In this document: piece after piece, positions 33,769 to 60,127 of the stretch
Numbering within the stretch: position 1 is the first letter of the stretch
Layout of the letters: the number at the start of each line of letters is the position of its first letter
IMG/VR virus record: IMGVR_UViG_3300035698_011514
Source of the DNA: an uncultured virus (IMG/VR IMGVR_UViG_3300035698_011514)
Lineage: Duplodnaviria > Heunggongvirae > Uroviricota > Caudoviricetes
DNA length: 64,000 nucleotides
Reading direction: 5' to 3' (one strand)
Program-made: the position numbers and the translations under genes
Notes under the pieces: model-generated
Databases searched by the model: none
The model's input: only the letters and a program-made list of their open reading frames with translations
What the model was told of the DNA's origin: nothing

Positions 33769-33784
33769 TGAAATGCCCTACGGA

Positions 33785-35241: not shown

Positions 35242-35313
35242 GTGTCATATCCTCGCATGTGGGTTCGTGCAAACCGCAGCTCTCCGTTTAATGTTGAAGA
35301 GCTAGATTGTCAA

Positions 35314-36183: not shown

Positions 36184-36184
36184 G

Positions 36185-37165: not shown

Positions 37166-37170
37166 AGTGA

Positions 37171-38292: not shown

Positions 38293-38380
38293 GTGTATTT
38301 CATTGTAGAGAGCCTTGAATAGAATAAGGGGGAGAAACATGGTCCCTCCCCCTTATTCTGCTCAGAAACAGAAGGAGCCC

Positions 38381-39577: not shown

Positions 39578-39587
39578 CTTTCTACTC

Positions 39588-40346: not shown

Positions 40347-40467
40347 CTCAAAACCTCTTAGCTTTATTGTGAAAATAAATCCCCCTGAACACAACAAAAT
40401 CATTGAGATTTTATTGTGCTGAGGGGGATTCTACCCTCAAAGCCTTAAAGATTTTGAGGGTGCATGA

Positions 40468-41163: not shown

Positions 41164-41332
41164 TTGAGATCCTTGCACGATGGGTGGCATAAAGCCAATG
41201 GGTGGCACGACCTAGCTCGTGCCTTGTCTTGGACTGCGATATGCAATCAACGGACACTGTATATACACTGGAGACGTTCTGTTTTTCACAGGATCACTCG
41301 ATTTTTTATGAAAATTATCGAGAAATTCTATG

Positions 41333-42010
41333 TCAAGTCAAATCGCCCAGAAGTATATCAAAACCTGTACCAGACATCTCGTCGTCACCCTCAAAGAGGG
41401 GAGACAGCTCTACCTTGGGAGGCATCGCAAAGACATCTGAAGGGAGATCGTAAGCCTTAGGAGACACCTTAGAAACACCCGCCAGAAGCTCGGAAGGATC
41501 ACGATGGATGGTCCCTTTCTCATGGGTATGCTCTGAGCCCCTATAAGACGCAGTGTCGATAGAGTCACGCATGAGGCTTCTCAATCGCTGTATATCTTGT
41601 GATACGCTCTTCAACTCGTTGAGCTTGAGCTTCACGATCGTCTCAATGTGCTTCACCCCTGTCACGTCACGCTTGAAGCGTTGAATCTCAAGAATGTGAG
41701 ACTTGAGGATAGTCTTCGTCTTAGAATCTCGATCCTTCTGTGAAGAATAGAGAAGCATAGACTCAGATACTAGAGTCTCATCATAGAGAATATCGTAAAT
41801 CGCCTGAGCATCCGCCATACCCCTTTCGAGAGACATCCGTGACTGCATGACTTCCCTGTAATAGAGGTTGGCATTGGTCATGTGGCGGTTAACTTCAAGA
41901 ATCTTTTCTTGAAGATACTGAGGACCAAGCTCTTCAGTGTCCGTGGCGAGGGGCACCGCCATTCCCCCAACCAGCACCAGAATAGCTTCCGCACGCTCAT
42001 CAGAAAGCAT
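41333..42010 (-). CDS. coiled-coil protein, possibly UvsY-like mediator
   Basis: Helical heptads, acidic tail, position near SSB and RecA; inference. Confidence 0.45.
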   Translation of the reverse strand: MLSDERAEAILVLVGGMAVPLATDTEELGPQYLQEKILEVNRHMTNANLYYREVMQSRMSLERGMADAQAIYDILYDETLVSESMLLYSSQKDRDSKTKTILKSHILEIQRFKRDVTGVKHIETIVKLKLNELKSVSQDIQRLRSLMRDSIDTASYRGSEHTHEKGTIHRDPSELLAGVSKVSPKAYDLPSDVFAMPPKVELSPLFEGDDEMSGTGFDILLGDLT

Positions 42011-42317
42011 TTATCACCTCACTCGTCTCTTGATACTTGACGCTGCGCTTGCTTCTTATCACCTGAAAGCGATCTGTCGCTTTCACCAGCCACATTTTTG
42101 TTTCTTTAGGATCAAGAGAACCTTGCACCGTCAAGGCCGTGAAGGTTTCTTTTACGACAATTTCTGCAAGATCTAAGTGAGCGCGGCGAGCCCCCTCCAG
42201 ATCCCACACGCTCCCCGCATCAGGATGCGCATCAAAAGACACTTGTAATTCTGAGTGCAGGCCGCTCAACGCTTGGATCTTGAGACTAAACGTAGACGTG
42301 ATCTTACTGATCAGCAT
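42000..42317 (-). CDS. hypothetical protein
   Basis: AGGA RBS; overlaps the next start. Confidence 0.55.
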   Translation of the reverse strand: MLISKITSTFSLKIQALSGLHSELQVSFDAHPDAGSVWDLEGARRAHLDLAEIVVKETFTALTVQGSLDPKETKMWLVKATDRFQVIRSKRSVKYQETSEVINAF

Positions 42318-42428
42318 ACTTTTTCCTGTTTTCTTTGGAACATGAGGACACAGGGCAGGTTCATTTAGAATGGTGCATTGTCTTCATGTCATCTTTGGTG
42401 TTAGATCCCCCTTACCACATTTTATGCG

Positions 42429-44663
42429 CTACTCCAGTTCAGGAGTCAAGCCAATTCTTCCCCGCAACCTGTACGCGAGGAGGGTATAGCGTTTTGTAAC
42501 ATTTTCAGTGCGCACGGCTTTTGACACCGCCTGCCACTCCCCGACAAGAATCACTTTCTTTCGGGCTCTCGTAACCGCCGTATACAGAAGTTGACGCTGG
42601 AGCATCATGTGATGCTCGCGCGCGAGCGCCATAATCACGACATCCCACTCTTGACCTTGGGATCTGTGCGTCGTGATGGCGAAAGCGTGCTTGAGCATGT
42701 GTGAGACCATGGCGAAAGGAAACACAACCATCTTGTCTTGTGCAGAAGTGTAACCAAAGAACTTGACAAGCACCTCCTTAGGAGCCATGTCGATCACTTC
42801 GACCTTACCAATCTCCCCATTATACACACCAAGCTGAGGATTGTTTTGAAGACAGATCACACGATCACCTTCTCTCAAATCCACCAAGCCAAACTGACGT
42901 TCTGTCTTCGAGGAATCCGGGGGGTTGATCTTTTCGCGGATCTTGTTGTTGATCTCATCTACGCCCAGAGTACCCGCATATTTCGGAGCGATCACTTGAT
43001 ATGAAATCTTGCCGCCCAACTGATTCTTGAAGAAAATACCAGTCGCCAGCTTGACAATACGATCTTGAGCATCTTGCGCGTTATCATGGTGGGAGAATGC
43101 GAAGTCCGATTTGGGTTGAGACAAATCGGGGCAAAGCCCTTGATGGATCGCATGAGAAGCTGTGACGATCGAAGAGTCGGATTCCTGCCGGAATATCTGT
43201 GTCAGATGGACTCTAGGGATGACACCCGAATCAATCAGGTCGTGGAGAACGTTGCCTTCCTCCACCGAAGGGAGTTGAGCGGGATCTCCTACGAGAATGA
43301 GCTGTGTGTCTGGCGGTATGGCGTCCAGAAGGCGATAGAAAGTGTTCATTCCGACCATAGACATTTCGTCAAGGATGATCGTCTCTGCGCTCACCTTGGA
43401 TGCGGCGTTGTACCCCCACACATCTTCCCCTTGATATCTCAGAAAGCGGTGTATTGTGGACGCATCCATTCCAGTCGTGTGATTCAAACGCTGCGCGGCT
43501 ATTCCAGTAGGGGCAAGCAAAGTCATCTGACGATTCAAAGTCTTGAGAACATATGCGACTGCGCGCATTACCGTACTCTTTCCTGTACCCGGCAGCCCCG
43601 TAAGCAAGAAGACCCTGTTTGTAGCTGTCTGCTTGACAGCTTCTTTCTGGAGGTCCGACAGCTCTATCTTGTAGCGTGCTTCGTAGGAAGTCAGCAAAGA
43701 GTCAATATCCAAAGAGACATTAAAGACGCCCTGCATCTGACCAAGAATCGAATGAATCTCATGCTCCGCCAAATAGCCTTTAGCCGTGTAAACATTATCC
43801 GTTTCGTCGACTACGACGCGACCATCAATGGCCCAGTGTGTAACCATCGACCTCAATGTCTGTTCGTCAAAGCCTTCATAATACAAATTTTCCTTGTCAA
43901 AGCCCGCCTTGATTTCATGCGTAAGTTTGGACGCTGGGAAGAAGACATGACCTCCTGATTTGAGGACACGCATATACATGTAATAGGCAAGCTCGCGCAA
44001 ACGTAGAGCTGAAGACTGCGATATCTTATGAATTTCGCAGGCAAACTTATCCACAGCGTTAAAGCTCATGCCTTCCACGCTAAGGAGAACATAAGGATTC
44101 TTCGCGATGAGGTCCGCCGCGTCTTCACCCAAAGTCTCTTGCACACGCATGATCATCTTATCTGCGATCCCCGCTTCACGCAGTCCCGCAATAGATGTGC
44201 GCACAGACTCGTAATCTGCCCATTCAGCCAAGATGCGCGATGCGTCGGGGTCGTTGAGACCATACTTTTCAAAAAGAGCCTTGGGGTCTTTCTGGAAGAC
44301 GCCCCACAATCCTTCCACGTCAGGCAGTTTTGCCAAAACTCTTTGAAGCAAAAAAGGAGAAATCTCGGATAAGTAAGCCGTCAGGGCTTGTACCAGTTCT
44401 AGTCTACCCTCCGAATCTGGAATATCGGACTTAAAGACTTGCCAAGAATTGCCATAGGTTTTGTGCTTGGAAAGAGTAGCCTGAATCCGCAAGACGACTC
44501 CGGGGCGGATCGTAATCCCCGGAAAATGGCCCTTGATCACCTCACTAAGGAAACCCTGTGCGGGATCAGCCTGAACATGGGCGATAATAAATCCCGATGC
44601 CTTATCCTCGAATTTAACTTTTCGGATCGTGACTTGGAAGTCATATATCTTATTGGTATCCAT
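42429..44663 (-). CDS. recD2: RecD2-family SF1B helicase
   Basis: NPY.L..V.G..F...D, LTGLPGTGKS, LAPTG.AA, DEMSMV, VGDPAQLPSV, QIFRQ, YNGEIG, AFAITTHRSQGQE, LYTAVTRA; start uncertain (44663-44687). Confidence 0.95.
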   Translation of the reverse strand: MDTNKIYDFQVTIRKVKFEDKASGFIIAHVQADPAQGFLSEVIKGHFPGITIRPGVVLRIQATLSKHKTYGNSWQVFKSDIPDSEGRLELVQALTAYLSEISPFLLQRVLAKLPDVEGLWGVFQKDPKALFEKYGLNDPDASRILAEWADYESVRTSIAGLREAGIADKMIMRVQETLGEDAADLIAKNPYVLLSVEGMSFNAVDKFACEIHKISQSSALRLRELAYYMYMRVLKSGGHVFFPASKLTHEIKAGFDKENLYYEGFDEQTLRSMVTHWAIDGRVVVDETDNVYTAKGYLAEHEIHSILGQMQGVFNVSLDIDSLLTSYEARYKIELSDLQKEAVKQTATNRVFLLTGLPGTGKSTVMRAVAYVLKTLNRQMTLLAPTGIAAQRLNHTTGMDASTIHRFLRYQGEDVWGYNAASKVSAETIILDEMSMVGMNTFYRLLDAIPPDTQLILVGDPAQLPSVEEGNVLHDLIDSGVIPRVHLTQIFRQESDSSIVTASHAIHQGLCPDLSQPKSDFAFSHHDNAQDAQDRIVKLATGIFFKNQLGGKISYQVIAPKYAGTLGVDEINNKIREKINPPDSSKTERQFGLVDLREGDRVICLQNNPQLGVYNGEIGKVEVIDMAPKEVLVKFFGYTSAQDKMVVFPFAMVSHMLKHAFAITTHRSQGQEWDVVIMALAREHHMMLQRQLLYTAVTRARKKVILVGEWQAVSKAVRTENVTKRYTLLAYRLRGRIGLTPELE

Positions 44664-44735
44664 AGCATGTCTCTCGTAGTGTTTCAAAACCCTGCCCCCT
44701 TTATGGCTTAGTGATCGTGTGTTTGTCAAGAAACA

Positions 44736-44767
44736 ATAAAGGGCTGTGACGGATCACAGCCCTTTAT
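44736..44767 (-). terminator. intrinsic terminator after nrdB
   Basis: ATAAAGGGCTGTGA-CGGA-TCACAGCCCTTTAT. Confidence 0.8.
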
Positions 44768-44784
44768 CCACCTACACGAAAATA

Positions 44785-45825
44785 TCAGAAATCTCCCCAA
44801 TCGTCTTGAACAGAAGAAGACATAGAATAGGATGTTACTTGAGTCTCGAAGAAATTAGACTTGACAGTAGCGTCACCACCTTCGTCCGCCATCTGCTCTA
44901 AGTGGAGATAAGGGTTCTCAGTGAAAGTAGGATACAGAGGAGCCAGTCCTATATCGTGCAGACGCTTGTTTGCAAGATATTTTGTATAGGCTTCGGTGCT
45001 AGTAGGATTGATCCCCAACACAGAAGATCCAATGATGTGATTGGTCCACTCAATCTCTTGGTCCACGGCGGTGCGTGTCATTTCCAAAAGAATAGCCTCA
45101 TCATACATATCAGGATGCTCGTCACGGATAGTCTGTATGATGTTCGCAAACAGAACACAATGAGAATACTCGTCTCGATTGATATAGCGAATCATATCCG
45201 CAGTACCAATGCAAAGATCACGAGATGCCAAATTGTAGAAGAAAGCGAAACCGTTGTAGAATAGCAACCCTTCCAAGAGATAGTTGGCGACCATCACTTT
45301 CCACAGCGCTTTAGGATCTTCGGGATGATCCAAGAGGTACTGGTACACAGATGCGACATACTCATTTCTCTTGTAGAGATTGGGATCGTCTTTCCAGAAT
45401 TCATAAACTGAATTCTTATCCGCTTTAGGTATAACGGACTCGATCAAGTATGCATAAGACTGTGAATGTATGACTTCTTGAAAGTCTTGGATGTGGATGA
45501 GCGTACTCACCTCGGGTGCAGTGATGTAATCCCCGATATTTGGGAGATTGTTCGTCTGCAAGGAATCCAAGAACACGAGAAAGGATAAGATCCCCTTATA
45601 AGCCCGGCGCTCTTCCTCCGTGAGCTGACTGTAATGCGTGATGTCTTTGGTGAGATCAATCTTCTCAGGTATCCAAAAGTTTGACATCATGAGGCGGTAC
45701 ATCTTAGGTCCCCAATGATACCGCACGTTGTTCAAGTTAATCAAACCCGTAGTGTCACCACCAATTAGCTTGCGACCCTTGAGAGAGTCATCGCCTTCGG
45801 GATTATAGAGCAGCTTCCGTTCCAT
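44785..45825 (-). CDS. nrdB: class I ribonucleotide reductase beta subunit
   Basis: FWIPE, LDSLQ, EVIHSQSY (radical Tyr), LEG..FY.GF, RDE..H, NFFE. Confidence 0.95.
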   Translation of the reverse strand: MERKLLYNPEGDDSLKGRKLIGGDTTGLINLNNVRYHWGPKMYRLMMSNFWIPEKIDLTKDITHYSQLTEEERRAYKGILSFLVFLDSLQTNNLPNIGDYITAPEVSTLIHIQDFQEVIHSQSYAYLIESVIPKADKNSVYEFWKDDPNLYKRNEYVASVYQYLLDHPEDPKALWKVMVANYLLEGLLFYNGFAFFYNLASRDLCIGTADMIRYINRDEYSHCVLFANIIQTIRDEHPDMYDEAILLEMTRTAVDQEIEWTNHIIGSSVLGINPTSTEAYTKYLANKRLHDIGLAPLYPTFTENPYLHLEQMADEGGDATVKSNFFETQVTSYSMSSSVQDDWGDF

Positions 45826-45884
45826 CTTAACCTCATTTCGATTTTAGGGGCGAGCCTCCCCTTTAGAAGCTCGCCTGTATTACT

Positions 45885-48800
45885 TTACCCGGAGCAAGAG
45901 ACACAAGCCTCTTCTCTTTCCAGCGCCTTCTGGACGCTACGAACATAATACACGCACTTGACATCCTTTTCCCACGCGTGGAGAAGAACATCGTAGATAT
46001 GCTTCTTGGACATGCCCGGCTTATTCAGATCAAACAGAAGCTCCATGGAGATGCCCGTGTCAATCCATTTCTGAATGGTTGAGGTCATATCCACGATAGC
46101 TTTCTGATCAACATTCTTAAACTCCTGATAATACCAATTACTCTCAGCGAGATAAGGGGGGCAAATAGGGACGGTCTGGCCCCCGTTCTTGTCGAAGAAG
46201 AACTTCCCATAAGGGGGTAAGAATGATGCTGTGCATCCCTGAATAAGTGACGTGGAAGTCGTAGGGGCTATGGCGAGGATTTGAGAATGCCTCAAGCCGT
46301 CACGAGCAATGTCCGCTGCAAGCTCATTCCAAGCGTTACCCATCTTCCCCGTCGCGGCGATGTCTGAAGCCTTGCGGCCAAAGAAGATCCCTTTCTTCTG
46401 CTCGGACAGGTGAAAGGCTCCAAAAGATCCGTGTGTCTTGGCTAGTTTGTGTGAAGCCCTGTGGGTGTAGTAAGCGATCTGCTCGAACACCTGATCTGCT
46501 TCCGCGAGCGCCTTTTCACTAGAGTAAGCGATCTTCCTCTTGGCGAGCCAATCCGCCCAACCCATCACGCCCACGCCGATGGTGCGATACCACTCGTTGT
46601 GCATCTTCGCTTCTGGAATCGGCGTCTCAGTAATATCTATGGACGCATCCAAAAGAATGACAGCCATTTCTGCTATATATTCTAACTCGTCTTCTGTGAT
46701 GACAGCCAGATTTTTAGACAGAAGGTTGCAACAGTGAACAAGGCCCGCCACAGATACCTGCGAAATCTTACCGTCTACAATCTCTTGCTGACCGATCTGA
46801 GTGCGCTTCACGTTGGAAAACGACTCGACGCATTGTCCCGTCGCGATCCCATTGAACACGACCGTATGTGAAGGACTGACCGTCACATCATAGACATCTT
46901 CCTTACCAAGATAGTCGATGGAAGCGATTTTGGTCTCCCACTTTTCCGATTTGAGACTAAGGTAGTGACCTTCACGAAGGCTCTTGCACTGGGTATAGGC
47001 TTTCATCTTGGATGGGAGGTTTGTACCCACTTGCTCCATAAATTGCCATGCATTGTCTCCCTTGAAATCTAGGCGATACATTTGCTGGCATGGGTACAAA
47101 TGGTCTTCACGATTTGTATCTGGAAGCATATGATCATCAGCCTCACGACACGTCTGAATCCGAGACCTCAGCCCTAGCATAGACGCAAGAATCTTGACAT
47201 GCTGAAGCAGGGGAAGGTTCACAGCGCTAATTTGCACGGCAATCGTAGGATTGCTGTCTGCATTCTTGATCTGATAGCAGAAACCATCCGTGTCGAACAA
47301 ACCCTTCAAAAAAGACCTAATTGTCGCTGCGTCCGAATTGTACAACCATGCTGGAATGGTCTTCTTATCTACACAGATCACTTCACCCGCGATGTAGGCG
47401 GCGGCTACATCCGAATTGGTTCCGAATACCTGCTTGGAATTACCATTCAGATATATCTTAGATCCCACTGTCATTTTTGAGAGATGTACCAGCTCAAAGC
47501 TACCATCTTTGTTGACAACAGGAAACTTATGCCACTCGGTACACTTGATCTCAGATCCATCAGACATCTTGACAGAATAAACGTCTGCGTCCTTTGCTGT
47601 AATGGTCATGGCGACATCGGGTGTCACGAGATCATCATTGCCTGTACCCGAGAAACGAGCATCCACCAAGACCTTCGGATTCAATCCTGACTCCCACAAG
47701 ACTTTTGCGGGGACATTTCCCGTCTCGGTCATGATCAATGTGTCTCCCGTGACACAGAGATTTGCTGAAGGGATGATCCCATCTGCCTTGTTAGGATTGG
47801 CGCGATTGATCGTGTCCTTAAACATGAGGTAAGGCATACCCGTTTCAATCAGAATATCAATGATATGCTTGATCAAGTCACGGGCATCCATCGTCTTGTG
47901 CGGAATCAAGCCCAAGGATGCGCACTTCTCCGCGTGCGCATAGCGCTCTTCAAATTCAGATCCCCAACAATCGACCAGATCATACTTCTCGCCCAAGATC
48001 GTCTTAACTTCGTATGGACAAAAGAATGTCCACTTTCCGTTCGCCTTCACACGCTCCATAAAGAGGTCTGGGATCACGAGCTGAGGGTAAATATCAAACG
48101 CCTTTCTGCGCTGATCTCCGTTTTCCGTTTGCATCTCCAAGAAGTCCGGGATGTCCTTATGCCAGATGTCCAATGAGATCGTTCCCGCGCCCGCGCGAGC
48201 GCCCGCCTGATTGACCGCGACAAAAGTATCATTGGCGATGCGAACCCAAGGCAAAACACCACCAGACACTCCCGGCTGACCTAAGACGGCAGATCCCTTC
48301 GCGCGCACGGCGGACACGTTGAGCCCAACACCGCCGCCATTCTTCGAGATGCGCGAAATCTGGTCGATCAGATAGAAGATTGAATCTCTCGAATCATCCA
48401 TCTGGAGAACGAAGCATGACGTGAGGGATCCGCCGACACGGCGAAGATTGCGTAGAAGAGGTGTGGCGAGACTGATCTTGCGCTCAATGAGGACATCGAA
48501 GGCTTTGCGCACTTCCGAAACAACGAAAGTCTTATCTGCGTTCTTAGCTCCTGCACCCCATGCTCTATGGTGCTGAGACATGAGCAAGATAGCAACGGTA
48601 AGGAACATCTCACCTATGGACTCCACGATCACGCCGTTCTTGCGCACAAGATAGCGCTGCATGAGCATGTTCGCGCCCGCGTAGTCAAAATGACGTTCCG
48701 CTTCTTCATTCTTGATCTCGTCAAACCACTCAAGCGGCCATGTGTTCCCTATCCTTGTATCGTAGAGATTATCCTTGAGCATATGCCGTACATGCCCCGA

Positions 48801-49127
48801 GTAGTCTTCCATAGGTCCATAGCCGCGTCCCGTCTCAAGATCCTTCTTGAGGTCCATAATGGCGAGTCGAGCCGCTACAATGCGCCATGCGGGAGCTTGA
48901 GCCGTGGTCAACTTCACAGCGGCATCAATTAGAGAGCGCTGAATCGTCTTAGTTTCCATGCCTTCCACAAAGCGAAGACGGAGATGGGATTCCAAAACAT
49001 GTGATTGAACAGAAAGATCTTCACACGCAGCCTCTACGACCTTGCGGATCTTATCGACATTAAAAAACTGAGAAACGCCGGAGCGCTTCTTGACATTCAT
49101 TTGATCACTCATCATATCCTCAGACAT
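45885..49127 (-). CDS. nrdA: class I ribonucleotide reductase alpha subunit, intein-containing
   Basis: ATP cone, ATP.L.N, SCF, GGGVG, NL[intein]CVE, CNL, APT.STS, YYVRS, C-terminal CVSC. Confidence 0.95.
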   Translation of the reverse strand: MSEDMMSDQMNVKKRSGVSQFFNVDKIRKVVEAACEDLSVQSHVLESHLRLRFVEGMETKTIQRSLIDAAVKLTTAQAPAWRIVAARLAIMDLKKDLETGRGYGPMEDYSGHVRHMLKDNLYDTRIGNTWPLEWFDEIKNEEAERHFDYAGANMLMQRYLVRKNGVIVESIGEMFLTVAILLMSQHHRAWGAGAKNADKTFVVSEVRKAFDVLIERKISLATPLLRNLRRVGGSLTSCFVLQMDDSRDSIFYLIDQISRISKNGGGVGLNVSAVRAKGSAVLGQPGVSGGVLPWVRIANDTFVAVNQAGARAGAGTISLDIWHKDIPDFLEMQTENGDQRRKAFDIYPQLVIPDLFMERVKANGKWTFFCPYEVKTILGEKYDLVDCWGSEFEERYAHAEKCASLGLIPHKTMDARDLIKHIIDILIETGMPYLMFKDTINRANPNKADGIIPSANLCVTGDTLIMTETGNVPAKVLWESGLNPKVLVDARFSGTGNDDLVTPDVAMTITAKDADVYSVKMSDGSEIKCTEWHKFPVVNKDGSFELVHLSKMTVGSKIYLNGNSKQVFGTNSDVAAAYIAGEVICVDKKTIPAWLYNSDAATIRSFLKGLFDTDGFCYQIKNADSNPTIAVQISAVNLPLLQHVKILASMLGLRSRIQTCREADDHMLPDTNREDHLYPCQQMYRLDFKGDNAWQFMEQVGTNLPSKMKAYTQCKSLREGHYLSLKSEKWETKIASIDYLGKEDVYDVTVSPSHTVVFNGIATGQCVESFSNVKRTQIGQQEIVDGKISQVSVAGLVHCCNLLSKNLAVITEDELEYIAEMAVILLDASIDITETPIPEAKMHNEWYRTIGVGVMGWADWLAKRKIAYSSEKALAEADQVFEQIAYYTHRASHKLAKTHGSFGAFHLSEQKKGIFFGRKASDIAATGKMGNAWNELAADIARDGLRHSQILAIAPTTSTSLIQGCTASFLPPYGKFFFDKNGGQTVPICPPYLAESNWYYQEFKNVDQKAIVDMTSTIQKWIDTGISMELLFDLNKPGMSKKHIYDVLLHAWEKDVKCVYYVRSVQKALEREEACVSCSG
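46833..47756 (-). mobile_element. intein (308 aa) with partial LAGLIDADG domain and C-terminal Gln
   Basis: Starts CVTGDTLIMT; block B CTEWHKF; FLKGLFDTDG; VYDVTV..SH.V.FNGIATGQ|C. Confidence 0.92.
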
Positions 49128-50205: not shown

Positions 50206-51087
50206 TTACCCTTGATATCGGATATTCAGGATCTCCGCCGTGAAATGCGCGCGAGGTGATCCCATTCGTGAGTTCTGTTTAGACCACAGGTGCATTCGGA
50301 TCAGAGCGTTCAAGAGATTTCTGCGTTTAGAAGGATTCATCTCCGCGCCGAAGTCTTTTGCACGATCTTTGTAATTCGCAGCCATGATCCATTCACCCCC
50401 GTTCAGGAACACTTCTGTATGAATTAACCCTAAGAGAATTCCTTGCAAAAAGACTTGAGGCTCATCTTCGAGAATGGAGATGTCTTTGAGATTTGTAAAG
50501 ATGTCATGAACCTTGTGAAACCCTAAACCCCATATAAGATCCATTACCCTGTATAAGGTGTCTTCGTGAATATCCCAGAACGCTTCCATTTCTGGAATCC
50601 CTTGTGTAAGGTAAGATGAAAAGCTGTTCGTGTCGGCGCAAGGTCTATTGTGCAAGTCATAGATTTGAAATCGAGAAAGAAGCGGGAGGGGCCATCCCGC
50701 TAAGGTGGTAGCCGTCGTGAGAAGTCTGTGGGTTCGAGTGCGTCCCATTTCTTCAACTTGCTTGAGCAGGGCGTTTGCGGCGCCTGTCGTCAAAGTTTCC
50801 ATATCCTCAATGACCACAGTTCGCTTGGCAGACACCAAGGGAGGCTTCTGCAAGAGCGCGACGATTTCCCGCGCGCGATCTACGCCGATCGTCTTATCCC
50901 CCTCCGCGATCTTGAAGAGATGAAGATCCGTATCCGCCCTAGTCTTGGACAAGCCATAGATGTCCAAGACATCATCCAAGAGTGTCTTGAGACGCTGAGG
51001 GCTTGAGCAGACATACACGACAGCACCGGGGCCAGTATCGTTCACATGGTATTGGAGCGTATAGTGGAGAAGGGTTTCTTCAAGCAT
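50206..51087 (-). CDS. holB: DNA polymerase III delta-prime subunit (HolB-like)
   Basis: D.H......TIGVD.AREI......P......VVIED.E.LT..AANALLK..EE, LLSR. Confidence 0.8.
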   Translation of the reverse strand: MLEETLLHYTLQYHVNDTGPGAVVYVCSSPQRLKTLLDDVLDIYGLSKTRADTDLHLFKIAEGDKTIGVDRAREIVALLQKPPLVSAKRTVVIEDMETLTTGAANALLKQVEEMGRTRTHRLLTTATTLAGWPLPLLSRFQIYDLHNRPCADTNSFSSYLTQGIPEMEAFWDIHEDTLYRVMDLIWGLGFHKVHDIFTNLKDISILEDEPQVFLQGILLGLIHTEVFLNGGEWIMAANYKDRAKDFGAEMNPSKRRNLLNALIRMHLWSKQNSRMGSPRAHFTAEILNIRYQG

Positions 51088-51101
51088 TCAATATTCCAAA
51101 T

Positions 51102-51139
51102 AAAAAGAGGGCATAGTGATTAGCCACTATGCCCTCTTT
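51102..51139 (-). terminator. intrinsic terminator overlapping a putative promoter
   Basis: AAAGAGGGCATAGTG..CACTATGCCCTCTTT; TTGACA at 51162-51167. Confidence 0.7.
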
Positions 51140-51182
51140 CTTACCACCACCCCTGAGATCCTGTCAAGAATCAAGGCGGGCA

Positions 51183-51440
51183 TCACCCGTTTAGGAAAGA
51201 TCCACCCGTGTTCACGAGCCATCGATAAGAGCAAGTGCTGCATTGGTAATTTACGGAACCCGCGTCATCTTTCGAGAACATGTACACCTGCCTACCCTTG
51301 CACCCTCCGGGATTGCGGCAGTTCATGTGAAATATCTTGGTCTTGCTTCGGATCACATCTTCTGGCGACCCTGCTACAAGCTGTGAAGCCGCTTGGATCA
51401 AAGTATCAAAGCAACGATTATTGATTTCTTCGGACATCAT
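51183..51440 (-). CDS. small zinc-ribbon protein
   Basis: GGGAG RBS; CRNPGGC...Y.CSTC...W. Confidence 0.6.
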   Translation of the reverse strand: MMSEEINNRCFDTLIQAASQLVAGSPEDVIRSKTKIFHMNCRNPGGCKGRQVYMFSKDDAGSVNYQCSTCSYRWLVNTGGSFLNG

Positions 51441-51450
51441 ATACTCCCTG

Positions 51451-51855
51451 TTAAGGTCTGGTAAAGACCTCGCGGATCGCAGCTGCAATCCATTGTGTGA
51501 GTAAAGGCTCATCAAACCAAAACAAGCCCAGTTCTGTAGGATCATCTGTCAAAAGAAGTACGAAGCGATCATAGTCTCTTCGATCCAATAAGAGATGATG
51601 TGCCCCCTTGAACAAGATGAGAATAATGGAATTCCCCCTGTCCAGTACACGCACGTTCTGTTGCAACGCTTGCTTTACCCAGTAAGGTAGAAGAATGAGG
51701 GCTTGTTCCTGCGTGAGCATTCTTAGTGGAACTGCTCCGCCATCCCGATATGCTTCTTCGCGAATGTCACCGATCAGACCTTTGGAGGTCATCGAAGTGA
51801 GATCCGGCATCACGCGCCCGCGCGTGCATATCTGGAGGGGGTGCAAAGATCGCAT
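51451..51855 (-). CDS. hypothetical protein
   Basis: TAATG overlap with the upstream gene. Confidence 0.55.
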   Translation of the reverse strand: MRSLHPLQICTRGRVMPDLTSMTSKGLIGDIREEAYRDGGAVPLRMLTQEQALILLPYWVKQALQQNVRVLDRGNSIILILFKGAHHLLLDRRDYDRFVLLLTDDPTELGLFWFDEPLLTQWIAAAIREVFTRP

Positions 51856-52097
51856 TAAGAATTATCCCCGTACTCTCGCAGGCTCCGCGCCATATCCTCT
51901 AACTTCTCCGCCAAAGCATAGATCGCGGACTTGAGATCCGGAGCGCCCTCGGACTCGCAGAAGACGTGGCCGCTGTAATCGGAACCCACGACGAGCGCCA
52001 TGTCCTCGGTCTTTTCATCTACCTGTTGCAGGAAGTACCACAGGCCGTGACCTTGCTGTGTTCTTAGGGGGATCTTTGGAGTCTTCTGGATCTTCAT
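51855..52097 (-). CDS. hypothetical protein
   Basis: AAGGA RBS; ATGA overlap. Confidence 0.6.
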   Translation of the reverse strand: MKIQKTPKIPLRTQQGHGLWYFLQQVDEKTEDMALVVGSDYSGHVFCESEGAPDLKSAIYALAEKLEDMARSLREYGDNS

Positions 52098-52351
52098 TTC
52101 GCTTCCTTGTTTGGTATTGTACTCAAAGGCGCTAGGTTGGATCGCGGACCCTTGAAAGGTCGAATAGCCACTTTTTGATGGTATCCCTTCGGGGTCAGGT
52201 AATGCAGCGTTTGAGACACCACAAACACACCACTCCCTATATCTTCGAAGTCTTCAAAAGTTAACTCTTCCCCCTTGGTAAGCAATGGGATTGTTAAGAC
52301 TTTGTGATCTTCCCAGATACCCGGCGCGAACATATAAGTCGTCACAAGCAT
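52094..52351 (-). CDS. hypothetical protein
   Basis: TAATG overlap with the KH gene. Confidence 0.55.
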   Translation of the reverse strand: MLVTTYMFAPGIWEDHKVLTIPLLTKGEELTFEDFEDIGSGVFVVSQTLHYLTPKGYHQKVAIRPFKGPRSNLAPLSTIPNKEAK

Positions 52352-52698
52352 TAAAGGGCTCCCGCAATGATCTTGTGGTCTACAAGCTCAATTTCTATAT
52401 TGTGCCCATACTTGTTTCCGATTGCCTTCATCAGCATCGTCAACGACTTGATCAGGATTCCCTTCTTTCCGATGATCTTGCCCATCTCCTTCGGCGGGAC
52501 CGTAACGGAGAAGATCACTTTGCTTGCTGTTCTCATCGTGGACATAAGGATAGTTGCATTGTCATCAATCAAGAATGCAATCATGTCCTGAAGCATTCCT
52601 TCTAGATCCGGGATCACGTCATACGGTGAATCGCTCATTAGAACACTCGTGGCGGGTTTGCATGTCATATCGTAGTACATGCTGTAATCGGCAGGCAT
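52351..52698 (-). CDS. khpA: KhpA (YlqC/UPF0109)-like KH-domain RNA-binding protein
   Basis: L..MI..LIDD...V...EMGKIIGKKG..IKSL..L..A.G......IEIE; start reset to the ATG after GGAGG. Confidence 0.85.
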   Translation of the reverse strand: MPADYSMYYDMTCKPATSVLMSDSPYDVIPDLEGMLQDMIAFLIDDNATILMSTMRTASKVIFSVTVPPKEMGKIIGKKGILIKSLTMLMKAIGNKYGHNIEIELVDHKIIAGAL

Positions 52699-52779
52699 AG
52701 AGCCTCCTAGGGAAAGACAATCTTGTTGCATGAAATACCCCCCATGATTCATGCACCACCATAACACACAATGCATAAC

Positions 52780-52825
52780 AAGAAAACAAAAAAAGCGCAT
52801 ATAACGATTAAATCGTATGCGCTTT
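52780..52825 (-). terminator. intrinsic terminator closing the 1.5-kb non-coding transcript
   Basis: Minus strand AAAGCGCAT-ACGAT-TTA-ATCGT-TAT-ATGCGCTTT followed by TTTTGTTTTCTT. Confidence 0.75.
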
Positions 52826-54297
52826 CAAGGGCAGAAATATCTAGCGAAAGATTCTCCTGATCACCTACATCACCATCACGCAAATAAAGGCACAGCCCCT
52901 AAGGACTCCGAACTCTATCTGGAGTAGTGTCTATTCATTTATCAGAGAAGGGCATACACGTTGAATCTTGTAGCTCTTGCATCAAGAATTCACTGACGGT
53001 GGGGTATCACCGATCCATTCGTTTAAGGTCGAATGAGGACATCAACACCTACCTGCGCTTGACCTCTTCACATCACGAGAGGTACTGCGTTGGATTTTGC
53101 TATAACGCTTGTTTCCGCTTCTAGGCCCGGAATTTAGATGTAGTAGCCTACGATAATTTGGGTTTCATCGCCGTAATCGTGAGGGGGCGATCCTTATTTG
53201 ATTCCTCTCCAAGAGAGCCCATTGTACTACCCAGCTATGTTGAAACACGACTGGAGCAACGGGACGCTTCTTTGAGGCATACATCCTGTTTAGGTTCAGG
53301 CTGAGACATGTAGTTTGCGTCCGATGTCTAGGTGACGCTCTTTTCTTTATTTATTCGCCCAGCGTGGCCGTCCATGTTTCAGGGATCTTGTCACCAAACC
53401 GAACCGGGAATTAAAGAGTAACGAACCGCTCTTTTTTACGGCGTTGAGATCGCCCTTACGCCCGAGTCGTAAGTGGGGAGTTGCTACTATTGCTTCTCCT
53501 CTTATTGTGATCGCCCCATTTTTCTATCACAACAAACGTCGCCCTGCGTGGTCTAGTCTTCACGAATGAAGACAGTATGTTGGATTTAATGGGATTCTTC
53601 CTCTCCGCCCTACATGGGTTGGACTTTACATTTCCGAATCTCCGCAGAGACCTCGGGATCGTGCAAAGTTGGTTCGAACTGCTACCAACCATTGCCCATC
53701 TTGTTTTACCGCATACGGAATGGATACCCGTCTTGGTGGCATGGAAGCCCTGCATGGCTCCCATCATGGAGAGGTCTTTGATGTCTTTGCTTAGGATATA
53801 CTTAGTCTTGCCTTGCAGAGATACTACGAAAGCCGAATTATGATCCCTCATCTCAAATAGATAAATGGCACAAGCGGGTCTAATGCCCTGATGCTTGCTT
53901 ACCCACCTCCGTCCAAAATTCGTCATCATATTCTGCCTCTTTTTCCCGGTAAGACCCTGATGATCTCTCCTAAACTTGCGAACGACACCCGATCCTATGT
54001 ACGCTTTTTAGACTACTTACGCGCTTGTTTTACATCGTCTTCCACTACCTAGTCAGCGGGGCTCGATGTTCACCTTGATTACATGATCATGTCGTCAAGG
54101 TCGCTTGTAAGAGGCGTAGGAGGCTTTTGACCCATCTACACACGGAGAGTGAGCAACTCCAGCATGGTTCGTCCATGCTCCCTCTGGGGATCGAGAAAGG
54201 AGACTCAAGCGAGTGACTATGATCCTCATCGTCTCCCTTCCAGCGAAAGTCTTGTGGGCGGACTTACCCACCAAACAAGACCTTCACCCAGAAGTTA
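52790..54297 (-). ncRNA. candidate ~1.5-kb highly structured non-coding RNA of unrecognised class
   Basis: No credible ORF; own promoter and terminator; more than 12 hairpins, UUCG loops and G-U pairs on the minus strand; long-range helices. Confidence 0.7.
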
Positions 54298-54303
54298 AGA
54301 AGT

Positions 54304-54332
54304 ACTGTATACGCCTGACGCAGACGTGTCAA
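54304..54332 (-). promoter_or_regulatory. sigma70-type promoter of the candidate ncRNA
   Basis: TTGACA (54332-54327), 17 nt, TACAGT (54309-54304). Confidence 0.75.
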
Positions 54333-54872
54333 ACAATTCTTGATAATCCGCTTGGAAAATGTCCATAACATAAAGATAGAGTAGCCGGACCCATTTTATT
54401 CTCAAAATAGAAGCGCTCACTACCTGTTCCTACGAGGATACGCTTCCAACGTCACCAAAGCCCCCCCAACACCACGAAGCCCCTCGGGGCTTGGTGTGAC
54501 TCGCACAAGCATTAAGCAAGGCTCTACGTCCCTCGTTAGCATGTCCTCACCCTTATCACACCCCCCCTCCGAACATCCTCCCCTAGGATACCTCACTGAC
54601 AACCCACATCCCTTCGAACAGTAAGAGGTGGCACTCTGATCCCCCCTCATCCAAACCATAGCCCCCTAGAACGCCCCTTAAAGCCCTCCGGGCATCCTCC
54701 TCGATGATTCACCCTCAAGGCAAATAAGAAGGTCTCAGTGTTCGTCTTTGGCACCTTCTCGCTTCGCTTCCTTGGAACCCCCCCACGCGTGCGCCTCGCG
54801 CGCGCCAGCGCACACCCGCGCCTCGCGCGCACACCCGCGTTTCTTTCTTCTTCTATATATATATAAATAATT

Positions 54873-55183
54873 AAACAGAGGAGAAGCAATAGTAGGGGGG
54901 GATAGAACCCCTGAAGGGGGTATGAAAAATAATTGAGATATTTTTAAGAAGGTCATTCCAGCCTAAGGAACCAATAAGGGGAGGCCCTTCCGGGGATTGG
55001 TGTCTGTTCTTTGGAGACAGAGAACCTCCACCCAAGGGGGGGTTCTCCCGCATCTCTTACCTACCTTAGCCCTTGAGAGCCCCTAAAAACATAGACACAA
55101 TTCTGTAACACTGTTGTAACACAAATGTCACAAAGATTGTTTTTAGGGTTCTATCCCCCCCTACTATTGCTTCTCCTCTGTTT
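54873..55183. repeat. perfect 38-bp inverted repeat (54873-54910 / 55146-55183), 235-bp spacer
   Basis: AAACAGAGGAGAAGCAATAGTAGGGGGGGATAGAACCC and its exact reverse complement. Confidence 0.92.
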
Positions 55184-55237
55184 GGGTGTTCGATAGCTTC
55201 CCTTCCCCAAGGGGGGAAGGAAAAGGATAGAGGGTGA

Positions 55238-55458
55238 GAAGGGGGATCTTAAAGAAGTGTTCTTAGGAGGGGGGTGGGAAGGGGGATCTTAAAGAGGTGT
55301 TCTTAGGTAGGGGGGGGGGATCTTAAAGGGGGGTTCTTAGGTTGGGGGGGGGGTGGGTAAGGAAGGTTTTTAAGGGTGGGGGGGGGGTGGGGGGGGGGGG
55401 GGGAAGGGGGGATCTTAATGGTGAGCTTGGGAGAGGTTGGGACAGATAGGATCTTAAT
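55238..55458 (+). repeat. G-rich iterated repeats GGGGGATCTTAAAG..GTTCTTAGG
   Basis: Three full copies (~55238, 55278, 55316) and partial GGATCTTAA copies (~55410, 55449), separated by G-runs. Confidence 0.85.
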
Positions 55459-55507
55459 TGTATTTATTGTTTTTAGATATCTTTTAGATTATGTTTGTTC
55501 GGCTAAA

Positions 55508-55539
55508 AAATAAGGTAGCCTGTGATGGCTACCTTATTT
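55508..55539 (-). terminator. intrinsic terminator ending the AAA/vWA operon
   Basis: AAATAAGGTAGCC-TGTGAT-GGCTACCTTATTT. Confidence 0.8.
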
Positions 55540-55557
55540 CTTCACTAGGCATGAGAT

Positions 55558-55884
55558 TCAGGTTGGTCGAATGGAGATTAGGGAAGGGTGCCACTCTAGG
55601 GGTTCTGAAGATCCGTCTCCGAAGAACCGATTGAGATGTTCAACGATCAATTCCTTCATTTCGGGCTCAATCTTGAGGAAGAAATCCTGTTCGAAGTGGC
55701 TGACAATGGGGGATACAAGATCCAAAGAATTCTTCTGCATCTGAATTTTATGATATCTCCGGAGGATATCTGTCTTTGTCTTATCTTGACAGGATGTCTG
55801 GAAGCTACAATGAAACTGGCACTCTTCATGAGTTTCGTCATAGAATCCGTGACAATCTAGCCCTGTTGGAATTCTGTGAGACAT
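55558..55884 (-). CDS. hypothetical protein with N-terminal Cys cluster
   Basis: C.G.YD....EC...C.F...C; AGGTG RBS. Confidence 0.6.
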   Translation of the reverse strand: MSHRIPTGLDCHGFYDETHEECQFHCSFQTSCQDKTKTDILRRYHKIQMQKNSLDLVSPIVSHFEQDFFLKIEPEMKELIVEHLNRFFGDGSSEPLEWHPSLISIRPT

Positions 55885-55889
55885 AGTGA

Positions 55890-58040
55890 TTACACCTTTT
55901 TTAGATGGTGGTTTCGTAGATGGGATGCGAAGGCTTCGGGTAGGTCTTCAAATCCTCGGATCGTGACGCAGTGTGGTAATCCTTCTGTGTGGGGAGAGAA
56001 CCCTGTTTGGCAGATATTGAGCAAGAGTGGCGATACCTGTTTGGAAGCATGTGCCCACCGCACCTTAAAGAGGTGAAGTGGGTCTCCGCTCCCATTACAG
56101 GCGTAATATGGCGCCCCATCCGAGATCAAGATCAGGTGCTTATTCTTTTCGGATCGGGACAGGAGTATTTGCAAAGCCTTATCCACAGCGTCACCAAGGG
56201 GCGTGTAGCCCTGCGGGTGGAAGCCCGCCATTCTGGCTTGTGTCTTGAGCGCGAAGGGTTCGTGGAAGTCTTTTGCCACGTTCAGGATGAGATGATCATA
56301 GTGTGTGTACCTATCGCCCCTCATGGGTTTCACATCAGACACCTGACAGGTAAAACCCACAACAGCGAAGGGTACATTTAGACTCTTGAGGATAGATCCG
56401 ATAGCGAGGAGAGAAATGATTGCAATATCCAAAACAGATGTCATGGATCCTGACAAGTCAAACATGATAATCACGCAGGACTTATCCGCTTTCTCCTGTG
56501 ACCTAATTTCAAAAGGTCTAGGCTTATTGGCATGAATCGTCGAAAGGCTTCGAGTTGAGACTTGGCGCCCGCTTGTTTGGTAGGGCTTGCGGACACTCTT
56601 GTCTTTGTTTTCAAGCATTGACACAAGAGGCGGGCGCAGCTTGGTCAAGTAGGGCTGCGCTTGAGGCATGTAAACCCTCAAGGCATTCTCATTCTCTCTC
56701 CCTTCGCTAATTTGATCTTTGACGCTTGAAGGCCGCAGAATACGGTTTTCGAGATGCCCCTTCTGGAACTCATGCTGGATATGTTTTTGGATATCTTTGT
56801 TGAAGCTGTCTGAAATATCCGTATCTACTTGTATATCTTTTTCTTCCATGTCAGACAGGCTTTTCCTACAATTACTGCCTCCATTCTTCGCAGGAGCGGG
56901 CGCGTGGTTTTCCCCATCCTCTTCCGTTCCCTCCACGTCTTTTCCATCTTCGTCAGGATCTACATCCCCATCGAAGTCACCGGGATCACCGTCACCGGGA
57001 TCACCGTCACCGGGATCACCGTCACCGGGATCACCGTCACCGGGATCACCGTCACCGGGATCACCGTCACCGGGATCACCGGGTTCCCCCTCACCTGAAT
57101 CCTCATCAGGATCACCGGTGTCCCCCTTACCGGGGTCCTCTCCATCGGAATCATCCTCATTGGACTCCCCTTTACTGGGCTCCCCTTGAGAGTCATCTTT
57201 GCCCGCATCATCTTCTTCTGCTTCTTCATTGCCGCTCGGTTCCTCCAGATGATCGAGCAAGAGAAAGAGCGCCTTCAGGGCGACGGTCAAAGTCTTGTAG
57301 GTATCGTCTGCTATCAGCGCCTCATGCAAGAGTGCCTGAGGATAGATGTCTTTGATCTCCTGCGGGCGCTCAGGCAAGTCTTTTAAATATATTAAAGATT
57401 TACAATGATCTCTTAGATACATTATTGAGTGAGCGCAGTACCATTCGGTTGTGCCTTCCACCAAATGCTGCACCACTTCTTCTTTCTTCCAGATATAGTT
57501 GTGGACGGACTGAAGAAGGTAGGGGGCACCGGGAAATCTGGCACATCCTTTACGCTCGATCATGACATCTTCAAAGACATTCCAAAACGTCTTGATGAGG
57601 GGCTGGACTTTCGCTATCTTTTCAACATCCCATAAGGGTTCAATGGCTTTGAATATCTTTTTGACGTTCGGAACACCTCTTAGCGTGTACAGGGAATGAA
57701 ACACCTCATGGAGCAACCCCCCGTCCAGAGCTGTCTGTATGTCTGTGGGGCTATCTGGTGGTATGGAAGGCATGAAGATTGTGTTAGGTGACTTTGACTT
57801 CTCGTAAGACAGGTTCACCTTCGCGTAAGCTTTTTCTACGACGTCTTCACTGAAGTTTATTTCTTTGGAGCGAAACACTTCTAAAGCGATACCAATGACA
57901 CGAAAGTCTGAGCTGTTGGCGAAGTCTCCACCGCCCACTTTCACTTTCAGATCGGCCTCGCGCGCGATGATGCGCGCGACCGTCCCATGCTGGCGCTCGT
58001 AATCCCCTACCCATTGGTTCAGGATCGTCTTCATCGCCAA
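55890..58040 (-). CDS. vWA-domain protein (CobT/MoxR-partner-like) with HExxH domain and acidic linker
   Basis: LLHEVFH; MIDAS DLSGSM, TP, ISDG. Confidence 0.85.
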   Translation of the reverse strand: MAMKTILNQWVGDYERQHGTVARIIAREADLKVKVGGGDFANSSDFRVIGIALEVFRSKEINFSEDVVEKAYAKVNLSYEKSKSPNTIFMPSIPPDSPTDIQTALDGGLLHEVFHSLYTLRGVPNVKKIFKAIEPLWDVEKIAKVQPLIKTFWNVFEDVMIERKGCARFPGAPYLLQSVHNYIWKKEEVVQHLVEGTTEWYCAHSIMYLRDHCKSLIYLKDLPERPQEIKDIYPQALLHEALIADDTYKTLTVALKALFLLLDHLEEPSGNEEAEEDDAGKDDSQGEPSKGESNEDDSDGEDPGKGDTGDPDEDSGEGEPGDPGDGDPGDGDPGDGDPGDGDPGDGDPGDGDPGDFDGDVDPDEDGKDVEGTEEDGENHAPAPAKNGGSNCRKSLSDMEEKDIQVDTDISDSFNKDIQKHIQHEFQKGHLENRILRPSSVKDQISEGRENENALRVYMPQAQPYLTKLRPPLVSMLENKDKSVRKPYQTSGRQVSTRSLSTIHANKPRPFEIRSQEKADKSCVIIMFDLSGSMTSVLDIAIISLLAIGSILKSLNVPFAVVGFTCQVSDVKPMRGDRYTHYDHLILNVAKDFHEPFALKTQARMAGFHPQGYTPLGDAVDKALQILLSRSEKNKHLILISDGAPYYACNGSGDPLHLFKVRWAHASKQVSPLLLNICQTGFSPHTEGLPHCVTIRGFEDLPEAFASHLRNHHLKKV
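56976..57080 (-). repeat. 7 x 15-bp perfect tandem repeat encoding GDPGD
   Basis: (GTCACCGGGATCACC)7. Confidence 0.95.
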
Positions 58041-59221: not shown

Positions 59222-60127
59222 ATGCGCGCACCATATCCCTACTTCGGCGGAAAAAGTAAAATCGCTCCTCTCATATGGGAGCGCTTTGGGAAGATTCGGC
59301 ATTACGTCGAACCTTTCGCGGGATCGTTAGCCGTTTACCTAGGCTGTCCAGAAGGGGTTCACCCCGCGAACACGACGCTCAATGACCTTGATGGGTATAT
59401 TACTAATTTTTGGCGCTCTGTGAGATCACGCCCTCTCGATGTGGCAAGTCACGCAAAGAGACCTCGATCTGAAATAGACATGGTCGCCTGCCATGGGGAG
59501 ATCCAGAGGAGACGTGAAACCTTGACCTTAAACCTTATGCGCGATCCTTATTACTGTGATCCCGAACTCGCGGGTTGGTGGGTTTGGGGTATGTCTGTGG
59601 CGATAGGAGATCGTTGGCTTCAAATTTTTGAAGATCCTGAGCCTTTCCGCTCCGCCGCACCAAAGCTAGAAACTTCGGGTGTGTTCTCCGTGTATTCGGG
59701 AGGGCTTGAGAAGTGGATGCAAGATTTGGCTGCTTGTCTTGTGGAGTCGCGCATCTTGTGTGGAGACTGGAAGCGGTGCGTTACGGATGGCATTCTGTAT
59801 TATCGAGATTGGGATACGGGCATATTTTTGGACCCACCTTACAAGGGGGAAGGTCGCAGGAAAAAGATTTATAGTTTTGACCTCGCAGATGAGGTCGACC
59901 TTCATAAAGAAATACAAGATTTCTGTCTCGACACAGGGACGAACACGAAGATAGCTGTATGTGGTTACGAAGGGGATTTTGAGTTCCCGGAAACATGGGA
60001 ATGCGTGTCGTGGAAATCTAACGGCGGCTACGCTAGTGATGGCGCGGGGAGAGAGAATCGAGATAGGGAGCGCATATGGTTTTCTCCCGCCTGTCAGAAG
60101 CCTGATAAGACGCCTAGCCTGTTCTAG
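59222..60127 (+). CDS. DNA adenine (N6) methyltransferase, D12 class
   Basis: PYFGGK, YVEPFAGS, NDLD, FLDPPY. Confidence 0.9.
   Translation: MRAPYPYFGGKSKIAPLIWERFGKIRHYVEPFAGSLAVYLGCPEGVHPANTTLNDLDGYITNFWRSVRSRPLDVASHAKRPRSEIDMVACHGEIQRRRETLTLNLMRDPYYCDPELAGWWVWGMSVAIGDRWLQIFEDPEPFRSAAPKLETSGVFSVYSGGLEKWMQDLAACLVESRILCGDWKRCVTDGILYYRDWDTGIFLDPPYKGEGRRKKIYSFDLADEVDLHKEIQDFCLDTGTNTKIAVCGYEGDFEFPETWECVSWKSNGGYASDGAGRENRDRERIWFSPACQKPDKTPSLF

Follow-up and report, generated by a model that had tools for sequence, protein, structure and literature searches.

A 38-bp perfect inverted repeat, together with an exact third copy of its 19-bp core, lies in a non-coding gap in DNA of an uncultured virus of the Caudoviricetes (IMG/VR record IMGVR_UViG_3300035698_011514). 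The DNA analysed was a 64-kb window (64,000 nucleotides), which is part of a larger phage genome, and the absences reported below for this DNA hold for the window only. Our preferred reading, which we hold tentatively, is that the 19-mer forms the outer core of a cis element acting at the DNA level within an origin-like module, and that the third copy (copy 3) serves as an auxiliary site. To our knowledge, hardly any origins or cis-control sites have been defined in huge uncultured phages, and a literature search found nothing relevant. The module offers a concrete and sharply delimited candidate for such an origin or control site, with two 38-bp arms, an AT-rich tract and mirrored G- and C-rich arrays. 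The unusual feature of the locus is an exact third copy within a non-coding unit that has its own terminator.

The 19-mer CTACTATTGCTTCTCCTCT was reported as identical at three sites in a sequence-only reading of this DNA, and the identity holds, with 0 mismatches at each site. It reads on the plus strand in copy 3 and in the right arm of the inverted repeat, and on the minus strand in the left arm (Table 1). Chance had been judged a very unlikely origin; indeed, 0 of 100 dinucleotide-preserving shuffles gave any match, and none is expected. A search for more copies found no scattered extras within the 64 kb and no further site with three or fewer mismatches. With up to six mismatches allowed there were 14 sites, comprising the three perfect copies, two sites with five mismatches and nine with six. 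As no site has one to four mismatches, the 19-mer family is all-or-nothing. The repeat is real and non-random, and therefore needs an explanation.

The distance from copy 3 to the arms is 1374-1677 bp, with no overlap, and copy 3 and the right arm form direct repeats 1677 bp apart. Its edges are sharp: inward there is no similarity to the arm, and outward three of the next five bases match the right arm (22 of 24 overall, which is not significant). A minus-strand RNA across this site would carry the purine-rich strand, with purines at 16 of 19 positions.

The inverted repeat itself was also confirmed. Its arms are 100% complementary and 235 nt apart, both contain the 19-mer, as bases 5-23 counted from the outer end, and they form the longest perfect repeat in the window. 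They are strand-asymmetric, the inward-reading strand of each having 30 purines in 38 bases. A G7 run had been described at the inward 3' end of the matched segment; this run exists, with a mirror C7 run in the other arm, although the final G of the 19-mer is part of it. No internal hairpin was found in the arms, as each folds as single-stranded DNA at -0.7 to -1.2 kcal/mol, no better than shuffles. Nor was there a target-site duplication beside them (the flanks are taataatt and gggtgttc), or a copy of either arm elsewhere in the window. The centre between the arms holds a sigma-70-like site (55073-55101, plus strand), followed by TGTAACAC, TGTAACAC and TGTCACA at 11-bp spacing (55104-55132). 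The exact spacing of these three TGTNACA-type repeats gives a layout like that of operator sites on one helix face.

Around the repeat, the module is mirror-symmetric. From left to right it consists of a C-rich tract, an AT-rich tract, the left arm, the centre, the right arm, a G-rich tandem array and a second AT-rich tract. The ratio of G to C on the plus strand is 81:183 on the left (54400-54872), 53:51 in the centre and 138:19 on the right (55184-55460), where G runs reach 16 nt. Each unit of the G-rich array is made up of a G-run, GATCTTAAAG and then GTTCTTAGG. A composite unit, CTTWAAG-N3-9-GTTCYWRG, occurs four times in the window, always in the module: on the plus strand at 55248, 55288 and 55322, and on the minus strand at 54665-54683. 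The module is flanked by two of the three 40-mers with the highest AT content in the window, and the one next to the left arm is a candidate unwinding element. GATC is strongly over-represented in this DNA (589 sites in 64 kb, or 9.2 per kb). A GATC cluster was considered as an origin mark and rejected because the motif is abundant everywhere; the array span (55245-55450) has five sites, and there are up to nine per 250-bp window elsewhere.

The gap that holds the module and copy 3 extends over 2.7 kb (52801-55557) and is non-coding by four tests. Codon-usage log-odds of 11 open reading frames (ORFs) in the gap range from -0.139 to +0.028, compared with 0.250 +/- 0.070 for 42 genes and a mean of -0.087 for 18 off-frame ORFs. 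None of 21 stop-to-stop frames in the gap has a Pfam match better than E = 0.02. A 157-aa ORF overlapping copy 3 matched, among 1.84 billion representatives, itself and one weak repeat-type sequence (E = 1.7e-4, 19% identity). An alternative genetic code was also tried and rejected, as reassigning TGA, TAG or TAA leaves the gap closed. No tRNA or tmRNA was found in the gap, and Rfam searches were negative, at gathering score for the whole window and at E <= 1 for 52700-55700.

A scan for hairpins followed by T-runs (52600-55700) found two intrinsic terminators on the minus strand, T1 and T2, and these bracket the gap. T1 closes the operon of CobS, CobT and ORF108 on the minus strand and would also stop plus-strand transcripts leaving the module, and T2 lies directly before the gene of a KH-domain protein. 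As these are the only two minus-strand terminators, a leftward transcript in the gap would be a separate non-coding unit that ends at T2 and contains copy 3. The listed ATG of the KH-domain ORF (52351-52800, ATG at 52800) falls within the T2 stem, and the KH domain occupies residues 69-138 of the 149-aa frame. The true start of this protein is probably further downstream, judging from an AGGAGG near 52712-52706.

The candidate non-coding RNA (ncRNA) is a plausible transcript by its sequence signals, and it is not recognisable as a known RNA. Promoter-like sites are not enriched, with 3 in 3.7 kb against 4.1 +/- 1.4 in shuffles, when scored by a sigma-70-like consensus; the phage has its own sigma-like factor. 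The best fold in the candidate transcript is at 54200-54319 (z = -3.3), and around copy 3 the fold signal is not significant (z of -0.6 to -1.2). The sequence-only reading had placed the 19-mer RNA segment in a weak hairpin (GGAG..GC-loop-GC..CUCC). This hairpin is indeed the predicted centroid fold (-6.4 kcal/mol), but it does not stand out from shuffles, 95 of 200 of which fold at least as well (z = -0.08). The accompanying idea that the segment is exposed received no support, as its predicted single-strandedness ranks only 284 of 1493.

Independent assemblies bear on the copies as well. Misassembly had been raised as a way in which the observation could fail, and no sign of it was seen at copy 3 or at the right arm. 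The context of copy 3 is confirmed by a JGI metagenome contig (L011, 3168 bp), which independently matches window positions 50769-53936 with 100% identity, and a Logan contig covers 54883-55287, which takes in the centre, the right arm and 104 nt beyond it. No independent contig bridging the outer junction of the left arm was found. Logan contigs from four runs, compared over 52000-57000, are identical to the window except for T>A at 54701, and have no joints, indels or loose ends, at a depth of approximately 5x from which rare variants are dropped. Coverage is patchy in three of the four runs, and the contigs break near copy 3 and the left arm, which is consistent with low depth and the 38-bp repeat. 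No step or doubling of depth was seen across the gap (4-6x throughout), contig depth being a poor measure. L011 ends at 53936 and the contig of Logan run X1 at 53937, a point that another run bridges; these two may be one data set with a coverage gap.

Table 1. Features of the module, the non-coding gap and the primase gene in the window (position 1 is the first letter of the 64-kb stretch).
Feature	Position	Strand	Details
Toprim/DnaG-type primase	31223-31960		sole primase type found among 64 ORFs scanned
T2 terminator	52788-52826	minus	stem + U7; -15.6 kcal/mol; z = -4.3
Candidate non-coding transcript	52827-54297	minus	putative start from TTGACA-17-TACAGT at 54332-54304; end at T2
Copy 3	53484-53502		oriented as right arm, inverted relative to left arm; minus strand is AGAGGAGAAGCAATAGTAG
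C-rich tract	54400-54783	plus	C7 runs at 54461, 54561 and 54778; minus-strand GGGGGGTTCCAAGG at 54770-54783
GC-rich block	54784-54839		short direct repeats CACRCSYGCGCCTCGCGCGC and GCGCACACCCGCG; precedes left AT-rich tract
Left AT-rich tract	54840-54879		15% GC; abuts left arm; ties for most AT-rich 40-mer in 64 kb
Left arm	54873-54910		purine-rich strand (30/38) reads inward on plus strand; 19-mer at 54877-54895; G7 at 54895-54901
Centre	54911-55145		235 bp; balanced composition (G53:C51)
Right arm	55146-55183		19-mer at 55161-55179; C7 run at 55155-55161
G-rich tandem array	55232-55437	plus	five units spaced 40/34/34/58 nt
Right AT-rich tract	55454-55493		15% GC; between G-rich array and T1
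T1 terminator	55505-55542	bidirectional	z = -6.8 (minus), -4.1 (plus)

The preferred reading treats the module as a candidate replication origin or other DNA-level control site, placed just upstream, in the direction of transcription, of the replication and recombination genes. A phage factor would recognise the 19-bp core, in opposite orientations on the two strands, in either duplex or melted DNA, and the duplex would melt at the AT-rich tract beside the left arm. Copy 3, 1.4 kb away, may be an auxiliary site for the same factor, acting through looping, titration or regulation of the non-coding unit around it; as a DNA site of this kind it would be quite ordinary. A DNA element is favoured because a site read on opposite strands explains all 38 bp of the arms, whereas a shared RNA segment explains half of them. 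It is also favoured because the arms sit in a symmetric module, with an AT-rich tract and iteron-like arrays, near replication genes, and because two inverted sites of 40 nt within an origin are known from oriV of RSF1010 (PMC8567376). Of this reading, the repeat, its symmetric setting, the non-coding gap and the terminators are shown, whereas origin function, a binding factor and the part played by copy 3 are inferred.

Several observations weigh against this assignment. The module is kept in no relative found, and the evidence of conservation is therefore nil. Families of protein-binding sites usually include degenerate members, whereas degenerate copies of the 19-mer are absent from the window, and all-or-nothing copies are no less compatible with base-pairing, recombination or recent copying. 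A scan of 64 window ORFs revealed no initiator gene beside the module, and the arms do not have the internal hairpin that is typical of ssi-type priming sites. The module is not at a switch of gene orientation, because the genes on both its left and its right are on the minus strand. The absence of enrichment of promoter-like sites and of any special clustering of GATC also counts on this side.

Among the alternatives, pairing by RNA, with RNA:DNA and RNA:RNA forms taken together, is in our estimate rather unlikely, and we place in the same range the general proposal that a trans-encoded ncRNA with a 19-nt purine-rich guide pairs with both arms, as RNA:DNA or RNA:RNA, and so sets or throttles bidirectional initiation. 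If base-pairing were true, it would be a trans-RNA input to origin firing, for which no example in a phage or plasmid is known to us. The sequence-only reading had proposed one version of this, in which a minus-strand ncRNA that includes AGAGGAGAAGCAAUAGUAG would anneal in trans to the pyrimidine strand of each arm, and the resulting R-loops, with inward-pointing 3' ends, would open or prime the origin at two symmetric sites; we give this version little credence. Copy 3 does lie in a terminator-bounded minus-strand unit, the RNA would be the purine-rich strand (16/19), a tract of 15% GC adjoins the left arm, genes for a RecA homologue and a KH-domain protein are close by, and all-or-nothing identity suits base-pairing. 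A purine-rich RNA strand gives the more stable kind of RNA:DNA hybrid. There is also an in vitro precedent from phage T4, in which an RNA oligonucleotide annealed within an unwinding element suffices for replication (PMC3016281). Against these points, the fold, accessibility and Rfam analyses gave no signal at the segment, the pairing accounts for only 19 of the 38 perfect positions of each arm, and known R-loop origins use a nascent transcript in cis. We know of no natural origin that is primed by a trans-acting RNA, and a limited literature search gave cis R-loops only. An RNA:RNA version seems at least as likely, though still distinctly improbable. Outward transcripts through the arms would carry CUACUAUUGCUUCUCCUCU near their 5' ends, followed by G-rich sequence, and would be perfectly complementary over 19 nt to the RNA of copy 3; the minus-strand RNA could then regulate them in trans as an antisense RNA, with a function like that of RNA I towards the primer RNA II of ColE1. 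In a variant, with one long minus-strand RNA from the centre to T2, the same 19 nt could form a long-range intramolecular helix. The sequence itself dictates this geometry, and transcription from the promoter-like site in the centre would run through the right arm and the G-rich array to the bidirectional T1. Outward transcripts would copy a G-rich strand to the left of the centre as well as to the right. Persistent hybrids are reported to be favoured by G-rich transcripts at the mitochondrial CSB II element (PMC3488243). RNA:RNA pairing leaves the perfect 38-bp arms unexplained, promoter-like sites are no commoner than in shuffles, and its comparative support is nil.

The DNA-level alternatives and a functionless copy 3 have to be set beside these. 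Recombination sites or mobile-DNA ends, which could be sites of crossover in a 235-bp invertible switch, copy 3 being a further shufflon-like site, a MITE-like unit of 311 bp with copy 3 as a lone end, or att-like cores (copy 3 and the right arm) around an inserted segment, are a distinctly unlikely explanation. The perfect and sharply bounded identity is what would be seen where recombination needs or maintains identity, and a promoter-like site lies within the bracketed centre. However, none of the 64 window ORFs has a recombinase, resolvase, invertase, integrase or transposase domain, and the arms lack a target-site duplication. No other copies of the arms were found in the window, IMG/VR, JGI metagenome contigs or 185,579 reference genomes, and the Logan contigs of four runs show no joints, at approximately 5x depth and with minor variants not shown by contigs. 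The gap could also be a physical chromosome end or packaging signal, with the core as a site of terminase or end recognition, but this we consider very unlikely. The cosB site of lambda, with its three R sites, has a comparable layout, and terminase, portal and capsid genes lie within the same window; the terminase gene is, however, 31 kb away, and the Logan contigs show neither a step nor a doubling of depth, contig depth (4-6x) again being a poor measure. Finally, copy 3 may have no function and be left over from an event in which a short patch was copied from an arm, for example through template switching or gene conversion, within rapidly evolving non-coding DNA. We regard this as rather unlikely. 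The lack of evidence of conservation and of a structural signal, and the presence of only one extra copy, are in keeping with it. On the other hand, an unselected 19-bp patch would have to be very recent, because it has no mismatches, sharp edges and unrelated surroundings, and copy 3 sits in a terminator-bounded unit beside a highly organised module.

Comparative material for a DNA element of this kind was sought in several collections. A blastn search of 52800-55600 against 50,697 phage records gave no match, and the two-unit pattern of the G-rich array had none in IMG/VR. The KH protein has no relative in IMG/VR. The CobT-like protein encoded to the right of the gap has four homologues (41-43% identity) on contigs of 2.2-4.7 kb; the protein alone found no relative in IMG/VR, an alignment of the five sequences found none in IMG/VR, JGI metagenome contigs or reference genomes, and tblastn of the protein against the phage collection was empty. 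The only syntenic relative found was LR745208.1, a 485-kb uncultured phage in which 23 of 63 window proteins have counterparts, at 24-50% identity, within its last 85 kb. Relative to the head, transcription and clamp-loader block, window region 33078-49127 is inverted as a whole in LR745208.1 (439683-458880); this recombination and nucleotide-metabolism block includes RNR, RecD, RuvC-like, RecA, SbcCD, nuclease and ATPase genes. LR745208.1 does not have the 19-mer at three or fewer mismatches, the KH protein, the CobT-like gene, or a gap comparable to 52801-55557 at the syntenic place. It has two long inverted repeats of its own, a 29-mer from a family of dispersed motifs and a 23-mer that has no third copy, and neither is a parallel to the repeat described here. 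The dispersed motif (for example at 10630-10658, 11144-11172, 13221, 14036 and 25780) contains CCCTATCGGTAC and is often directly upstream of the Shine-Dalgarno-like GAGAAGGAGG. It may be a promoter or leader motif specific to the phage.

Exact matches to the 19-mer were found elsewhere at 3 loci in IMG/VR, 26 in JGI metagenome contigs and 4 in the 185,579 reference genomes. The 26 metagenome loci comprise one from the same phage (L011), 12 of a eukaryote-like coding family, 7 of the phage-gene family to which the IMG/VR loci belong, and 6 others. Apart from L011, these matches are single and bare, with unrelated flanks, and are about as frequent as chance allows. They gave no link to a host. 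The 12 eukaryote-like contigs form one family, with fragmented ORFs and an OTU protease nearby. Six of them (L004, L005, L015, L022, L024 and L025) share an exact 25-mer with the arm (54874-54898 / 55158-55182), which is placed in a coding exon at about position 4000 of each locus (427-451 in L024). This sharing exceeds the chance expectation for a bare 19-mer match, and a biological link is not apparent.

The gap is at the head of the phage replication and recombination genes. By domain scan, the window encodes structural proteins (terminase, portal, protease and major head proteins), a sigma-like factor and an antiterminator. Replication is represented by a clamp loader, a Toprim primase, a sliding clamp and proteins like pol III delta and delta-prime, and recombination by a PD-(D/E)XK nuclease, SbcCD-like proteins, RecA, a RuvC-like resolvase and a RecD-like helicase. 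The RuvC-like protein (39588-40403), the only one in the window, matches phage Holliday-junction resolvases. A KH-domain protein and a ribonucleotide reductase with an intein are also present; the intein, in the large subunit (45885-49127), has a LAGLIDADG homing-endonuclease domain (Pfam Intein_splicing, LAGLIDADG_3). To the right of the gap are an AAA (CobS-like) protein, a VWA (CobT-like) protein and a Dam-type methylase. The phage-encoded methylases are this N6-adenine enzyme (59222-60127) and a C5-cytosine enzyme (4461-5516).

Within the CobT-like gene, 56946-57186 is a 15-bp tandem repeat, GTCACCGGGATCACC on the complement of the coding strand, with approximately seven perfect units and further degenerate ones. 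It probably encodes an acidic, proline- and glycine-rich linker of variable length. A dispersed 17-mer, ATGGAAGAGCTACAAGA, has four copies in the window and looks like coding or chance similarity. Five sequencing runs were found to match the stretch, all labelled as salt lake metagenomes, with a sampled-word share of 0.89 in one and 0.06-0.11 in four; none of the five is an RNA run.

Known systems share parts of this arrangement. RNA-guided systems such as the IS110 bridge RNA, the omega RNA of TnpB and IscB, and CRISPR work with a partner recombinase or nuclease, and the families of these partners are absent from the window; nor was a structured guide RNA of a known family found here by Rfam. 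MITEs and other IS-derived elements share the inverted ends, but the target-site duplication and multiple copies that go with such elements were not found. Invertons and the R64 shufflon are alike in that inverted repeats bracket a short promoter-bearing segment, and the 19-bp sites of the shufflon occur in both orientations. They differ in that the window has no recombinase gene and no shuffled coding segments, and no alternative orientation was seen in the Logan contigs of four runs at approximately 5x depth.

The likeness to ColE1 is that a G-rich transcript could hybridise at the origin, and that control could be exerted by a second RNA with complementarity to the 5' part of the primer. 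RNA I of ColE1, however, is antisense at the RNA II locus itself, whereas here the complementary segment is 1.4-1.7 kb away and 19 nt long, and ColE1 replicates unidirectionally, whereas the module is symmetric. Phage T4 offers a related case, in which pre-annealing an RNA oligonucleotide to a supercoiled origin plasmid, next to the unwinding element, is sufficient for replication in vitro (PMC3016281). Like oriF and oriG of T4, the module has an AT-rich tract (54840-54879), in the position of an unwinding element beside the priming site, where it abuts the left arm. T4 uses a nascent transcript in cis from a MotA-dependent promoter approximately 100 bp away, whereas the transcript here is only predicted, and T4 has neither the inverted repeat nor the distant copy. 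A recognition repeat one to several kb from the main cluster is found in P4, with ori and crr, and in R6K, with its gamma, alpha and beta origins. These systems have short degenerate iterons and a known initiator, in contrast to the three perfect 19-mers of this phage.

The closest parallel to the arm pair, by analogy, is the pair of priming sites in oriV of RSF1010. These 40-nt sites, ssiA and ssiB, are on complementary strands and form an inverted repeat in the origin (PMC8567376). The ssi sites fold as a hairpin (nt 7-27), which the arms do not. RSF1010 relies on a RepB'-type primase and the RepC initiator, and none of the 64 window ORFs resembles either, the phage having a Toprim/DnaG-type primase instead; RSF1010 also has no third distant copy. 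The arms are nevertheless close to ssiA and ssiB in size, at 38 nt against approximately 40 nt, and are 100% complementary and inverted. Iteron-like repeats lie nearby in both, and oriV of RSF1010 has GC-rich and AT-rich blocks, as does the module described here.

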